A stretch of DNA of 64,000 nt from Nanobdellota archaeon. Its GTDB lineage: Archaea > Nanobdellota > Nanobdellia > Woesearchaeales > SM23-78. The DNA is taken from contig JAHJQO010000010.1 in the NCBI GenBank assembly GCA_018819305.1, positions 8,429 to 72,428 of the forward strand. Direction: 5' to 3'. The notes under the pieces were generated by a model. The model did not search any database. It was not told the DNA's origin and saw only the letters and a program-made list of their open reading frames with translations. Below, in pieces: positions 45,801 to 54,664 of the stretch; within the stretch, counting starts at the first letter, position 1, and the number at the start of each line of letters is the position of its first letter. The position numbers and the translations under genes are program-made.

Positions 45801-46781
45801 ATGAAAGAATTTATGAATAATATAAAAGCAAAAGCAAAGCAAAATCCAAAAACAATTGTTTTTCCAGAAGGAACTGAAGAAAGAATTCTTAGGGCTGCTG
45901 AGAAAATAATTCAACAGGGGATTGCAGGAGTTATTCTTATTGGCGATGAGAATGAGATAAAATCAAAGGCTAATGAATTAGGAGTTAATATTGAGTATGC
46001 AAAAATAATTAATCCAAATACTTTTGAAAAATTTGATGAATATGCAAATGCTTTTTTTGAAATGCGAAAGCACAAAGGCATTACTCTTGAGCAGGCAAAA
46101 GAAACAATGTCTAATTTAACTTATTTTGGGACAATGCTGGTTCATATGGGTGAAGCAGACGGATTGGTTTCTGGAAGCACGCACTCAACAGCAGACACTG
46201 TAAGACCTGCATTGCAGATTATTAAGACTAAAGAAGAATTTCATAAAGTTTCAAGTTTTTTCTTTATGCTGCTTGAAGATAAGTTGTTGATATTTGCTGA
46301 CTGTGCAATTATTATTGATCCTGATGTAAAAACTCTTGCTGAGATTGCTATAGATACAGCAAATAATGCTCGCAAGTTCGGAATAAATCCTAAAGTTGCA
46401 ATGCTTTCATTTTCAACTAAAGGTTCTGCAAAACATGCTTTTGTGGATAAAGTAATAGAAGCTACTGCTCTTGTTAAAGAAAAAATGCCTGATTTGATTG
46501 TTGATGGCGAGATGCAGGTGGATGCTGCGCTTGTACCTCATATTTGTGAAAAAAAATGCAAGGACTGTGATTTAAAAGGAGATGCAAATGTTTTGATATT
46601 TCCAGATTTACAGTCAGGTAATATTGCATACAAGCTTGTAGAGAGATTAGCTAAAGCAAATGCAGTAGGTCCAATATTGCAGGGATTGAACAAGCCTGTT
46701 AATGACTTGAGTAGAGGTTGTAGTGTGCAGGATGTTATTGATGTGACTGCAATCACTGTTGTTGAAGCACAAGGTGCATGA
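45801..46781 (+). CDS. pta: Phosphate acetyltransferase
   Basis: 326-aa PTA_PTB-only form with IVFPEG.EERIL, GLVSGS.HSTADT and GPILQGL.KP.NDLSRG. Confidence 0.9.
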   Translation: MKEFMNNIKAKAKQNPKTIVFPEGTEERILRAAEKIIQQGIAGVILIGDENEIKSKANELGVNIEYAKIINPNTFEKFDEYANAFFEMRKHKGITLEQAKETMSNLTYFGTMLVHMGEADGLVSGSTHSTADTVRPALQIIKTKEEFHKVSSFFFMLLEDKLLIFADCAIIIDPDVKTLAEIAIDTANNARKFGINPKVAMLSFSTKGSAKHAFVDKVIEATALVKEKMPDLIVDGEMQVDAALVPHICEKKCKDCDLKGDANVLIFPDLQSGNIAYKLVERLAKANAVGPILQGLNKPVNDLSRGCSVQDVIDVTAITVVEAQGA

Positions 46782-47959
46782 TTATGAAAATACTTGTTTT
46801 GAATTCTGGAAGCAGTTCATTAAAATACAAGCTGTTTGATATGAATTCTGAAAAAGAATTAATTTCTGGCCATGTTGATGGAATAGGGCTTGACAGATGT
46901 GTTATTAAGATAAAATATGCAAAAGGTGTTGATGAAGAAAAAGTTCTTGTCAAAGACCATGTTGATGCAGTTATGCTTGCCTTGAAATCACTTAAAGATA
47001 AAAAAATTATTAGAGATTATTCTGAGATAAATGCAATTGGCCATAGAGTTGTTCATGGCGGAGAAAATTATTCAGACCCTGTGATTATTGACAGTAAAGT
47101 AATTCATACAATAAAAGAATTATTTGACCTGGCACCATTGCATAATCCTCCAAATCTGGCAGGTATTCTTGCTTGCAGGAAAATGCTGCCTAAAATTTCT
47201 CAGGTCGCTGTTTTTGACACTGCTTTTCATCAGAGTTTGCCTAAAGAAGCATATCTTTATGGCTTGCCATATGAGCTTTATGAAAAGTTTAAAATAAGAA
47301 AATATGGTTTTCATGGAACCAGCCACAAATATGTTGCTAAACAGGCAATTAATTTGCTTGGGATTAAAAATAGCAGAATAATAACTTGTCATCTTGGTAA
47401 TGGTTGTTCTCTTGCTGCTGTTCTTAATGGAAAATCAATTGAGACCTCAATGGGATTAACACCTCTCGAAGGCTTGATTATGGGTACTAGGGCTGGGAGT
47501 TTAGATCCTGCAATACCTGTTTTTCTGATAAAAGACAAAGGATTCAAACCAGATGAAGTTGATAAGCTGATGAATAAGAACTCTGGATTATTGGGAATTT
47601 CTGGATTAACTTCAGATCTTCGTGATTTGCACAAAGCAAATCTCAAAGGAAATAAAAAAGCAGACCTTGCTCTTCAGATGTTTGCACACAGAACAGCATT
47701 TTACATCGGAGGATACATGGCTATACTTGGTGGTCTGGATGCGCTTGTATTCACAGCAGGCATTGGCGAAGGAGCCTGGCACATGAGAAGACGCATTTGT
47801 AATTATCTTGAATCCCTGGGAATAGAGCTTGATTTAAAGCTTAATCGTAAAGGAGGAGTTCTGATATCAAAACCAGATTCTAAAGTAAAAGTTTATGTGA
47901 TACCAACCAATGAAGAACTGCAGATAGCCAGAGAGACTAAAGAGGTGGTTGGGAAATAA
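46778..47959 (+). CDS. ackA: Acetate kinase
   Basis: ILVLNSGSSSLKY, GHRVVHGG, FDTAFH, YGFHGTSH and CHLGNG. The start overlaps the pta stop. Confidence 0.95.
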   Translation: MIMKILVLNSGSSSLKYKLFDMNSEKELISGHVDGIGLDRCVIKIKYAKGVDEEKVLVKDHVDAVMLALKSLKDKKIIRDYSEINAIGHRVVHGGENYSDPVIIDSKVIHTIKELFDLAPLHNPPNLAGILACRKMLPKISQVAVFDTAFHQSLPKEAYLYGLPYELYEKFKIRKYGFHGTSHKYVAKQAINLLGIKNSRIITCHLGNGCSLAAVLNGKSIETSMGLTPLEGLIMGTRAGSLDPAIPVFLIKDKGFKPDEVDKLMNKNSGLLGISGLTSDLRDLHKANLKGNKKADLALQMFAHRTAFYIGGYMAILGGLDALVFTAGIGEGAWHMRRRICNYLESLGIELDLKLNRKGGVLISKPDSKVKVYVIPTNEELQIARETKEVVGK

Positions 47960-50540: not shown

Positions 50541-52571
50541 TTATTCTTTTCCGCACAACTTCTTCAAATTTACCCATCGCTTGTCGACATTGGCTTGTAA
50601 TGCCTCAATAATGTGCGCATTCTCTGGCTTCATGAGGTGCCTGAATCTTTTCTGCATCTTTAGCCATTCGATTATTGGTTTCTTTCTCTCGCCAGGGTCA
50701 AAGTTTAATTTCCATTCATCGTTTTCTACTTCAAATAACGGCCAGAAACAAGTGTCAACAGCCATCTTTGCCATTTTAAGTGTCATTTGCATTGGATATT
50801 TCCAGCCTGGAACACATGGACTGAGGACATTGAGGAATGCAGGGCCTTTGACTGCAAATGCTTTTTCAGACTTTCTAACCAAATCCATGTAATTATGAGG
50901 ACTGGCTTGTGCAACATAAGGAATATGATGACCTGCAACAACAGCTGTTAAATCTTTTCTAAATTGTTCTTTTCCCTGATGCACTTTTCCAACTTGTGAA
51001 GTATTTGTCCATGCACCATAAGGAGTGCTTGAACTTCTCTGAATTCCTGTATTATGAACAACTATTCCGTCTGCTACAAAATTATGTTCATCTTCAACTC
51101 TTAAGTCAAGTGTAGGTTCTTCTTTCACAAACTTAATATTCATTATTTTCTCAGAACTAAACCATTCATTGTCAACCAAAAAATCTCTTTGCTTTGTCTG
51201 AGATAAGTATTTATCAACATCTGCTCCTTTTTTCTTGCTAAAACAAATATATCCATAAGTAGAGTCTTCTAACAATTCCCTGTAAACAACATATGTTCCT
51301 TTTTTCTTAGTTTGTTGATGTATCTTTCCTACCTGATAATTCATTGTCTGTAGCAATAATCTTAATGTTTTCAATAAATCAATACTTGCAGAAACATATC
51401 TATGGCTCTCACCAATTTTATATCCGTCTGAAAGCATTAATCCATTAAGAAAAGCTTCTTTCTCTTTTAATGGAAGTGTAAAAACCCAGTCAGGAATTAT
51501 TTTATTTTTTGCTCCTTTGCCAAAACCCAATGAGTCAATGAATTTAGCAACGTTTACTGAGTAGATATACATGTAATTAGCATCATTTTCAGCCAATTCT
51601 TTCCTGAATATTTTTTTATAAACTTCTTTTAATCTCTTTCTTCCTTTAGTATTTTTTGGAAGTGCAAATCCTGTTTCTGCTTTATGCTCTCTTACCCAAC
51701 CATCGCCAACATACAATCCTAAGAATTCCATTAGTTCAGGAGAACTTTTCACAGGGATTTTAATATTATTAATCTTGTTTACTTTATAATCTCCTTTTTG
51801 TGATAGTTTGATAGTAGGAAATGCATGGCTCTTACCATCTAATGATTTTTTCAGGACAATGACTTCATCTCCTTTTTTTAGTTCTTCTAATTTCTTCCAT
51901 ATTAATTTATTCTCTTTTTTCTTCCGGCTTCTATTAACGATAAGGAAAGGATGATTAGAAGTTGCTTTGATTGAATGATGCAAAGTGTTTAGTTCATAAA
52001 CTTTTTTTATTCCATTATCAAAAATACCGCTGCATTTTTTCAATACTAAATCTCCGTTCTTTTGGTTAAATGCATAAACTTTTTCTCCTACTTTTATTTC
52101 AGTTATTCTTTTTAATCCTTTTTCTGTCATTATAAGAGTATCAAGACTTAAACAATTCATATACCCCTCATTATCAAGGCATACATAAACAAAATTATGC
52201 CCTCTTTCAAGAGCACCAGATAAACTTTGCAATCCTATATCGTATGTTCCACCATCGCCGGCAAAAGCAAGGAATTTTATTTCTTTTGTAATCTTGCCTT
52301 TTCTTTTAAGAACATTAAAAGCAGCTTCTGCTCCTGAAATAGTTGCGGCTGCATTTTCAAATGCATTGTGTATCCATGGAACATTCCACGCAGTATATGG
52401 ATAAATAGTAGTGCTAACTTCAAGACATCCGGTTGCATTGCTGACAACAATCGGGTCTTTGGTGCCTCGCATAACAGCTCTTGCAATTATAGATAAGCCA
52501 CATCCAGGGCAAAGTCTATGTCCTGGTGCTAATCGTTCTCCTGTTAATGCAAGTTCTCGAATGTTTGCCAT
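50541..52571 (-). CDS. porB: Pyruvate (2-oxoacid):ferredoxin oxidoreductase beta subunit, interrupted by an intein
   Basis: Exteins: [14 protein letters not shown]...CLDNEGYMN | [15 protein letters not shown] (TPP motif) and a C-terminal PorB region. 676 aa in total, of which 368 aa are intein. Confidence 0.9.
51051..52154 (-). mobile_element. Intein with LAGLIDADG homing-endonuclease domain inside porB
   Basis: Starts CLSLDTLIM (Cys1). Block B is KATSNHPF, the LAGLIDADG motifs are [10 protein letters not shown] and [10 protein letters not shown], and it ends [10 protein letters not shown] followed by the +1 Thr. I checked the codon boundaries on the DNA (tgt at 52154-52152, aat at 51053-51051). 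Confidence 0.85.
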
Positions 52572-53749
52572 TATTCTCTTACTCCTAAATATCTTACTCT
52601 TTCTCCAACATTTGTTTTTACTTCTTCTAATTCAGCAAAAACTTTTTTTATCTGAGCAATATCTAATTCCCGACCACCCAGTCCATAAATATAATCAATA
52701 ATATTTGGCTTTTCAGTTTCTTCATGAAAACTACTTCTAATCTCAGAAAACAATGGCCCGCCAAATGCTCCAAAACTATCGCTTCTGTCAAGAACAGCAA
52801 CAGCTTTTACTCCTCTTAGTTTTTCAACAACCATGTCATTAAGCCAGGGTCTAAATACTCTCATTTTCAAAAGACCAACCTTCTGCCCCTGTTCTCTTAG
52901 CTCATCAATCACAACTCTTATTGTTCCTGCACTGCTGTTTGCACAAACAATTACTTTTTCAGCATCTTCTAATCGATAACCTTCGAAAAAATCATAATGT
53001 TTACCTGTTATTTTTCCAAACTCATCAAAAACCTCTCTAATAACTTTTACAGAGTTCTGCATAGCATCGACTTGTTGTCTTTTGTGCTCAAAATAATAGT
53101 CAAATAAATCAAGAGGACCATAAGTTACAGGTTTATCTACATCAAGCAAAGGGTAATGGCCAACATACTCTCCAATAAAGTTTTTTACTGTTTCATCATC
53201 TAGAAGCTCAACAGTTTCAACACAATGGCTTGTAATAAAACCATCTTGGCAAACCATTACTGGCAGTAATACATCAGTATGTTCCGCAATTCTCATTGCC
53301 ATTATTGTGTTTTCATATGCTTCTTCTCCATTTTCAGAATAAATCTGAATCCATCCAGAATCACGACAGCCCATGCTGTCAGAATGATCGCAATGAATAT
53401 TAATCGGACCACTTAAAGCTCTGTTAACAATATTCATAACAATAGGCAGTCTTGTACTTGCAGCAATATATACGATCTCCCACATCAATGCCAAGCCATT
53501 TGCACTTGTTGCAGTCATTGTTCTTGCGCCTGCAGCACTTGAGCCAACACAAGCACTCATTGCACTGTGCTCTGATTCAACTGTTATGAATTCAGTATCA
53601 ACATCACCATCAGCAACAAACTGGGAAAAAGCATGCATTATATTTGTCTGAGGAGTAATAGGATAAGCAGCAACAACATCAGGATTAATCTGGCGCATTG
53701 CTTCAGCTGTGCACTGGGCTCCTGTAAATGCTTTTCTTTTCTTTACCAT
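52571..53749 (-). CDS. porA: Pyruvate (2-oxoacid):ferredoxin oxidoreductase alpha subunit
   Basis: [21 protein letters not shown], and [10 protein letters not shown]. Confidence 0.9.
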
Positions 53750-53750
53750 T

Positions 53751-54098
53751 TTAATCCTTAAACTCTTTTTCTTCTTTCATTTCAATTGCTTTGAAAGGAC
53801 ATTCTTCTGCGCAAACACCACAGCCTTTGCAATAATCTAAATCAAAACCACCAAAATTACCTAAGTTTGGTTTATCACTCACACCTTTTTGGCCTTTTGC
53901 AGGACAATCAACTCCACCGACTTTAATAGCAGAGTCAGGGCATATCATCCAGCAAATCATGCAGTTGGTGCATTTTTCAGGATTATGTAAAGGCCTGAAA
54001 GTTCTCCAGTCGCCTGTTTTATATTCTTTGCTGTTGCCCGCTTCAAGTATCTTGCCGCCAATAGGAATTTCTTTCCAGTTCTTTAATTTTCCACTCAT
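53751..54098 (-). CDS. porD: Pyruvate:ferredoxin oxidoreductase delta subunit (2x[4Fe-4S])
   Basis: CTNCMICWMICP and CKGCGVCAEECP. Confidence 0.85.
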   Translation of the reverse strand: MSGKLKNWKEIPIGGKILEAGNSKEYKTGDWRTFRPLHNPEKCTNCMICWMICPDSAIKVGGVDCPAKGQKGVSDKPNLGNFGGFDLDYCKGCGVCAEECPFKAIEMKEEKEFKD

Positions 54099-54664
54099 AT
54101 CTGGACCTCATTATATGCTCTTTCAAAAGCTTTAACATTTTTCTCAGCTAAGTCTTTACCAAGATTATGTTCAAAATGTTTTAACATATGGGTTTTTAAT
54201 GTTTCATAATCAACACAATTAGTTGCTTTTTCAACAACTCCAAGCATTGCAGTGTTTGTAACAGCTCTCCCCAGCTCTTCAAGAGCAATCTTTACAGCAT
54301 CAATAACAATTATTTTTCCATTAAAATTAACAAGACTTTTAACTTCATCAATTGACTGATTTGTATTAATAATCAGAAGACCATCATCACCAAGACCTTC
54401 TGTCACAGGAATGCTCTTAAGCAAAGTTTGATCAAGTACAACCACAACATTTGGGTTTGTAATACCAGAATGTAAATAAATTGGATTATCACTAATTCTT
54501 GTAAATGCTTTTACAGGTGCGCCCTGCCTCTCAGCACCATATTCTGGAAAGCTCTGGACATATTTACCCTGTTCAATAGATGCTTCAGCAAGAAGCGCAG
54601 CAGCTGTTTTAGCACCTTGTCCGCCTCTACCATGAAAACGTATCTCAAAGATATCTTTAGACAT
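54095..54664 (-). CDS. porG: Pyruvate:ferredoxin oxidoreductase gamma subunit
   Basis: IRFHGRGGQGAKTAA..LA and FPEYGAERQGAPV. Confidence 0.9.
   Translation of the reverse strand: MSKDIFEIRFHGRGGQGAKTAAALLAEASIEQGKYVQSFPEYGAERQGAPVKAFTRISDNPIYLHSGITNPNVVVVLDQTLLKSIPVTEGLGDDGLLIINTNQSIDEVKSLVNFNGKIIVIDAVKIALEELGRAVTNTAMLGVVEKATNCVDYETLKTHMLKHFEHNLGKDLAEKNVKAFERAYNEVQI

Follow-up and report, generated by a model that had tools for sequence, protein, structure and literature searches.

The stretch of DNA analysed here (hereafter the window, 64,000 nt) is part of contig JAHJQO010000010.1 of the assembly GCA_018819305.1 (1.53 Mb, 57 contigs, 81.7% complete), the genome of a groundwater DPANN archaeon of the phylum Nanobdellota. 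Four contiguous genes on its minus strand form an operon in the order porC-porD-porA-porB, encoding a putative pyruvate:ferredoxin oxidoreductase (PFOR), and the last of them, porB, carries an insert that leaves its frame of 676 codons unbroken and the operon intact. The insert covers residues 140-507 of the precursor, starts with CLSLDTLIM and ends with GIVVHN followed by Thr. We regard it, with a probability of approximately 0.88, as a canonical class 1 intein that includes a LAGLIDADG homing endonuclease with two motifs, lying in-frame between Asn139 and Thr140 of mature PorB. This identification is supported by sequence motifs, profile scores, the predicted fold and comparative evidence, from which we infer both protein splicing and endonuclease activity. 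The initial annotation of the window, made by a model from the letters alone, had described a 368-aa insert with an N-terminal Cys, the block TSNHPF, two LAGLIDADG motifs, a VVHN end and a +1 Thr, and its boundaries agree with ours to the base.

The residues of class 1 splicing (C1, T65, H68, D350, H357, H367, N368 and T+1) are all invariant in an alignment of 119 homologous inteins, TSNHPF corresponding to intein residues 65-70. As to the endonuclease, D243 is invariant and D151 at least 90% conserved in the same alignment, and both are present here, as are the 79 positions that at least 98% of the homologues share. Intein family models bear the initial annotation out, each scoring above its cut-off: Pfam Intein_splicing (PF14890) gave 65.4 bits (cut-off 35.8, E = 6.9e-18), NCBIfam intein_Nterm (TIGR01445) 31.3 bits (cut-off 24.5) and NCBIfam intein_Cterm (TIGR01443) 27.2 bits (cut-off 15.6). 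The endonuclease was matched by Pfam LAGLIDADG_3 (PF14528) with 27.4 bits (cut-off 22.5). An AlphaFold2 model of the intein, built from a 16-sequence alignment, had a mean predicted local distance difference test score (pLDDT) of 88.8 and a predicted template modelling score (pTM) of 0.87; helix-strand repeats are predicted for intein residues 139-310. When the model was compared with the PDB using Foldseek, the top match was the TliVMA intein 7qsu (E = 2.8e-23, template modelling score (TM) 0.73), followed by PhoVMA, PI-PkoII and PI-SceI, and 33 of the 35 matches at E <= 0.001 were inteins or bacterial intein-like domains. The non-intein matches were Hedgehog autoprocessing HINT domains (1at0; 6tyy just above). 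Mini-inteins aligned with the splicing half of the model and I-DmoI with the endonuclease half. The GC percentage is 29.8% in the insert, 39.9% in the exteins and 34.2% on average in the genome. Coordinates of all features are collected in Table 1.

Table 1. Genes of the por operon and features of the PorB intein, in positions of the window
Feature	Position	Strand	Remarks
porC (gamma subunit)	54095..54664	-	TIGR02175, 224 bits (cut-off 81)
porD (delta, 2x[4Fe-4S] ferredoxin subunit)	53751..54098	-	TIGR02179, 96 bits (cut-off 60)
porA (alpha subunit)	52571..53749	-	Operon partner of porB; NCBIfam PorA_Arch, 518.8 bits
porB precursor ORF	50541..52571	-	676 aa: N-extein, intein and C-extein
N-extein, aa 1-139	52155..52571	-	CPGC and GC Fe-S ligand motifs, GDG 105-107, Asn134; -1 residue Asn139
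Class 1 intein with endonuclease	51051..52154	-	368 aa, 1104 nt; PF14890, TIGR01445, TIGR01443
Block A, Cys1 nucleophile	52116..52154	-	C1, L2, S3 invariant in 119 homologues
Block B, Thr65 and His68	51942..51971	-	T65, N67, H68, P69, F70, L71 invariant in 119 homologues
LAGLIDADG homing endonuclease domain	51225..51809	-	Approximately intein residues 116-310; Pfam LAGLIDADG_3, Foldseek, dN/dS
LAGLIDADG motif 1, acidic Asp151	51696..51734	-	G150, G152, W153 invariant; D151 >=90% conserved
LAGLIDADG motif 2, acidic Asp243	51420..51452	-	FLNGLMLSD243GY; S242, D243, G244 invariant
Blocks F and G, ending His367-Asn368	51051..51113	-	D350, H357, H367, N368 invariant; TIGR01443
+1 nucleophile Thr	51048..51050	-	First C-extein residue; start of TG(I/V)QRS in all 119 full-length homologues
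C-extein, 169 aa and stop	50541..51050	-	Fourth Fe-S ligand Cys in LSPCVPGW

Removal of the intein in silico leaves a 308-aa PorB reading ...NEGYMNTGIQRS..., which aligned end to end to the PFOR beta chain 9bt4_C, across 282 residues (E = 1.5e-80). The spliced extein scored 372.1 bits against the NCBIfam PorB model NF008819, for which the curated equivalog cut-off is 405, and 296 bits against the VorB-like NF008818; the 518.8 bits of PorA compare with an NCBIfam PorA cut-off of 550. Judged by these matches the host protein is certainly the beta subunit of a 2-oxoacid:ferredoxin oxidoreductase (OFOR) of the pyruvate/ketoisovalerate group, and pyruvate is its probable substrate. A search of the assembly with the spliced extein returned the locus 50541..52571 as the sole match, and a search with the TPP_enzyme_C profile added two ORFs, by eye a transketolase and a sulfopyruvate/phosphonopyruvate-decarboxylase-like protein. 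No second porB or other OFOR beta gene that would make the intein-bearing copy dispensable was found in the 81.7%-complete assembly. Approximately 2.6 kb downstream of the operon and on the opposite strand, an ORF of 393 aa (MKILVLNSGSSSLKYKLF..., window 46778-47959, plus strand) was recognised by eye as acetate kinase-like. Together with PFOR it would suggest a fermentative route from pyruvate via acetyl-CoA to acetate in the host.

The intein lies in the active-site loop of the enzyme. GDG of the thiamine pyrophosphate (TPP) motif occupies residues 105-107, the Mg-ligand Asn of GDG-X26-N is Asn134 (in LDNEG), and the intein comes after Asn139, five residues beyond it. The initial annotation had placed the insertion exactly after the Asn of the TPP motif; this holds for the loop, which is indeed split, but not for the residue. 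In the alignment to D. africanus PFOR (7plm, 1b0p), Asn139 corresponds to Asn996 and the +1 Thr (Thr140) to Thr997. Asn996 of the D. africanus enzyme lines the pocket around the methyl group of pyruvate and rotates upon pyruvate binding. Its equivalent in the Sulfolobus enzyme is Leu123b, five residues after Asn118b, the Mg ligand; of the four loops that surround the [4Fe-4S] cluster, one is 117b-131b (PMC5020499). Across the OFOR family, the CXGC motif ligates the proximal cluster (PMC5020499). The iron-sulfur (Fe-S) cluster ligands of the protein described here are CPGC (21-24), C49 and the Cys of LSPCV in the C-extein, which aligns with Cys1071 of D. africanus PFOR.

The intein thus leaves the TPP/Mg motif and three ligand cysteines (C21, C24, C49) on one side and the fourth ligand Cys on the other. 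Because the substrate-pocket loop is split and the Fe-S ligands and the TPP/Mg motif are separated, the unspliced precursor is, as far as can be judged from the positions of these residues, very probably inactive. It had been stated in the initial annotation that the enzyme must depend on splicing. Such dependence is plausible, since no OFOR beta gene besides porB was detected in the 82%-complete genome; the inactivity of the precursor is something that we infer. The 12-residue segment around the insertion site, NEGYMN↓TGIQRS (the arrow marks the junction here and below), shows the highest conservation anywhere in the intein-bearing exteins, in keeping with homing endonucleases usually preferring conserved targets.

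Three states of porB occur within a single genus. In addition to the full 368-aa intein of the genome studied here, the congeneric genome G345 has a mini-intein of 162 aa at the identical codon boundary (locus L014, G345:C10:14600-16200, frame of 486 aa). Blocks A, B, F and G are all present in the mini-intein, and precisely the endonuclease domain is missing, the deletion joint reading ...IITLKKQPNKE↓KYLSQIKQRD.... Another congener, G238, has an empty site, ...VCVDNEGYMN↓TGIQRSS, at the same codon boundary. Its intein-free porB site reads GTATGCGTCGATAATGAGGGCTACATGAAC↓ACAGGAATACAGAGAAGCAGCAGCACGCCT, and the empty allele exactly matches the predicted ligation product. The initial annotation had allowed that related genomes might reveal a non-intein domain insertion; the empty allele and the mini-intein speak for an intein. 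With the motifs, the Pfam and NCBIfam scores and the AlphaFold2 fold, they uphold its central claim of an intein with a homing endonuclease in PorB.

The PorB intein is by no means confined to this genus. A search of a large protein collection with the precursor (E <= 0.001) matched at least 955 protein clusters, the best 120 of which are 57-100% identical to it and approximately 670-700 aa long. All 119 full-length homologues share the junctions (A/G)YMN↓C(L/I)(S/T) and VVHN↓TG.Q(R/G)S and have inteins of 365-372 aa. Source names of the clusters include Woesearchaeota, Heimdallarchaeaceae, Omnitrophota and Aerophobetes. Several homologues carry the automatic JGI/IMG label 'pyruvate/2-oxoacid:ferredoxin oxidoreductase beta subunit/intein/homing endonuclease', and in NCBI records proteins with the PorB intein are often named hypothetical. 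At the level of genomes, the intein is encoded by 168 species representatives, and of the best 80 of these loci 79 have the same insertion site in an open frame, the remaining one being cut by a contig end. The allele proposed in the initial annotation is therefore far from unique. The archaeal labels among the genomes are Woese-/Nanoarchaeota, Heimdallarchaeota, Iainarchaeota, Micrarchaeota, Aenigmatarchaeota and Bathyarchaeia, and the bacterial ones Omnitrophota, Cloacimonadota, Aerophobetes, Parcubacteria/Patescibacteria, Vermiphilus and bins labelled Planctomycetia or Clostridia. Several bins labelled 'Methanosarcinales' hold sequences nearly identical to those of Woesearchaeota, which suggests that such labels given by the submitters are unreliable.

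Occupancy was also surveyed in 401 genomes spread evenly over the phylum of the host. Seven full inteins (this genome included) and one mini-intein were detected, together with intein-free porB genes, at least 73 of them, whose open frame measures approximately 300-350 aa, so that 8 of at least 81 porB genes are occupied. A viral vector was considered as well and rejected: the scan of IMG/VR viral contigs revealed no PorB intein, and the inteins that it did detect are distant (22-29% identity) and belong to other genes. By their exteins, the OFOR beta subunits with an intein can be divided into three or more deep clades, approximately 40-50% identical to each other, with archaea and bacteria mixed in each (loci L017-L096). 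Judged by this divergence, the intein may occupy paralogous OFOR subfamilies beyond PorB, for example VOR-like ones.

The histories of the intein and of its host gene are in conflict. Against the closest relatives the intein diverges about as fast as the exteins or slightly faster (83-89% versus 89-90% identity). Among more distant ones, inteins 70-77% identical to this one reside in porB genes whose exteins are 39-53% identical, for example in Cloacimonadota (intein 73%, extein 39%), Heimdallarchaeota (70-73% and 50-53%) and another woesearchaeote (75% and 45%). Intein identity holds at 58-77% while that of the exteins drops to 36-47%. In the intein tree this lineage clusters with the inteins of Heimdallarchaeota with a support of 96, a grouping that the extein alignment rejects (log-likelihood difference 131.5, p-AU = 7.1e-5). 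The ratio of nonsynonymous to synonymous substitution rates (dN/dS), computed against the three closest relatives, is 0.06-0.08 in the endonuclease domain, 0.04-0.08 in the splicing domain and 0.04-0.07 in the exteins, and these values are rough. Because the two histories conflict and the endonuclease is under purifying selection, the comparisons point to active homing. The porB locus with its intein is identical in three groundwater metagenome runs (X1-X3). A single intein-free junction was found in the groundwater contigs, and it belongs to the porB of another organism, with 10 mismatches in 69 nt (window 52155-52223). That intein-free porB, with the junction ...YMN↓TGYQRSGATP, occurs in the same samples, at a contig depth of 42 in X1. 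Potential homing targets hence co-occur with the intein-bearing population.

Several observations weigh against an actively homing intein on which the enzyme depends. The genome being 82% complete, an intein-free second porB is possible. The dN/dS values are rough because dS is close to saturation. The extein tree also mixes archaea and bacteria; PorB itself crosses domains, and part of the spread of the intein is therefore whole-gene transfer and not homing. No joint that skips the intein was detected in the contigs of four groundwater runs, and no empty-site variant of the same strain in those of the three; there is thus no direct sign of current mobility in this population, although contigs drop rare variants. 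Finally, splicing and DNA cleavage are predictions from sequence and model. That splicing is a prediction is also the sole point that could be raised for a non-splicing domain insertion or a porB pseudogene with a non-functional enzyme, as nothing positive speaks for either. We consider both highly improbable and reject them on the motifs, the fold and purifying selection: the frame is intact within an intact porCDAB operon, every catalytic splicing residue is conserved, the exteins are under strong purifying selection, and the empty allele of the congener equals the predicted ligation product. The lack of empty-site polymorphism in the source populations would rather suit an intein that still splices but whose endonuclease is dead, a fixed and vertically inherited passenger late in the homing cycle. 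The congener G345 is already without the endonuclease, and in at least one homologue Gly replaces the first catalytic Asp (VGGGW). This reading is unlikely, since D151, D243 and the near-invariant positions are all intact here, the endonuclease domain has a dN/dS as low as that of the exteins, and recent horizontal movement of close relatives of the intein into distant porB genes is supported.

A different role for the element, to which we give somewhat less credence still than to a dead endonuclease, would be that of a redox-gated switch, the intein having been co-opted for conditional splicing so that PFOR, an oxygen-labile enzyme, would mature in a reducing environment only. Oxidation of Cys1, perhaps to a disulfide with the family-invariant Cys41, would then stall splicing. 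Other archaeal inteins are documented to splice conditionally (PMC5790916), Cys41 is invariant in the 119 homologues, and the loop that the intein occupies lines the proximal Fe-S cluster as well as the substrate pocket. Strong purifying selection on the splicing domain and the persistence of endonuclease-free mini-inteins at the PorB site could be read in the same way. Conservation of a Cys by itself is, however, weak evidence. Approximately 90% of the porB genes in the phylum sample, one of them in the same genus, are without the intein, so the host has no need of it. A selfish element agrees with the patchy distribution, with the incongruence of the trees and with the conservation of the endonuclease. 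If the redox gate were nevertheless true, its benefit could help to explain why the intein, mini-inteins included, persists across anaerobic archaea and bacteria.

For the canonical intein with homing endonuclease, which we prefer, the following course of events can be proposed. The porCDAB operon would be transcribed and porB translated as the 676-aa precursor, in which the HINT domain would fold and Cys1 undergo an N-S acyl shift. The +1 Thr would attack the resulting thioester, Asn368, helped by His367, would cyclise to release the intein, and an O-N shift would restore the peptide bond to yield the 308-aa PorB. The endonuclease of the excised intein would then cut intein-free porB alleles at the highly conserved site, and repair from an occupied allele would copy the intein into the cut gene. 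Homing of this kind would explain the patchy spread over divergent porB lineages of archaea and bacteria. The homing mechanism proposed here is the one established for PI-SceI.

The closest known systems are the TliVMA and PhoVMA inteins of the A-ATPase subunit A (7qsu, 7qss, 7qst), which are the best matches in both sequence (phmmer E = 1.2e-08) and fold. They likewise consist of a HINT domain interrupted by a double-motif LAGLIDADG endonuclease, in total approximately 360-430 aa, but are only 17-20% identical to the PorB intein and reside in the P-loop region of an ATPase, whereas the latter is located in a TPP/Fe-S oxidoreductase loop and has Thr at +1. PI-SceI (yeast VMA1) and PI-PkoII (Thermococcus kodakarensis Pol) also combine splicing with LAGLIDADG homing (Foldseek E = 1e-14 to 3e-15). 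Both exceed the PorB intein in size and have an additional DNA-recognition region (query-normalised TM 0.52-0.68, identity 14-17%), and they reside in an ATPase and a DNA polymerase, respectively. If the splicing domain is taken by itself (blocks A/B and F/G), its closest sequence matches are the Ssp and Npu DnaB mini-inteins (1mi8, 4o1r, 6frg; 25-31% identity), which resemble the 162-aa mini-intein of G345 but are without endonuclease and reside in a bacterial replicative helicase. On the side of the host, the beta subunit of a four-subunit PFOR, 9bt4 (chain C), and domain VI of D. africanus PFOR (1b0p, 7plm) are without an intein; 9bt4_C has the identical segment with DNE(A/G) at the insertion site, uninterrupted.

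Eight intein-bearing genes were seen in the 1.5-Mb source genome. In the gene of the archaeal release factor aRF1, which lies outside the window (contig C56:20623-23292, plus strand), an intein directly follows the catalytic GGQ (...RAGGQ↓CCVPNS...FVHN↓SAPRFARLR), and the motif at that site is the canonical GGQ. The other hosts, recognised by eye on contigs C57, C29, C19, C2, C40 and C51, are DNA polymerase B, UDP-glucose 6-dehydrogenase, a FlaI/type-IV-secretion-like ATPase, a HerA-like ATPase, GyrB and RtcB. The insert in GyrB has an HNH-like motif (HHTDFNKLNNNPDNL...HIQLH) in place of LAGLIDADG.

The mechanism of the PorB intein is entirely conventional, the element is common in public data, and no new mechanism is involved. 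We found no published description of an intein in PorB or in any 2-oxoacid:ferredoxin oxidoreductase in the literature searched, which included an Anaeramoeba intein paper, a 2026 review of PFOR diversity, the Thiomargarita genome paper and the main prokaryotic intein survey, although the supplementary lists of that survey may contain one (PMC4760082). The survey assigns 61-67% of the intein hosts to COG category L and 8-22% to category F (PMC4760082). The PorB intein represents an allele family that is large, cross-domain and apparently unpublished. An abundant and conserved intein family shared by archaea and bacteria, and located in an oxygen-sensitive TPP/Fe-S enzyme of central carbon metabolism, widens the picture of intein hosts. 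As precursors of approximately 670 aa are annotated as 'hypothetical' in several NCBI records, annotation pipelines and metabolic reconstructions may miss PFOR. With full, mini and empty alleles inside one genus, the PorB intein is a natural system for the homing cycle, and it suits the study of cross-domain transfer among uncultured anaerobes such as DPANN, Asgard, Omnitrophota, the candidate phyla radiation (CPR) and Cloacimonadota.

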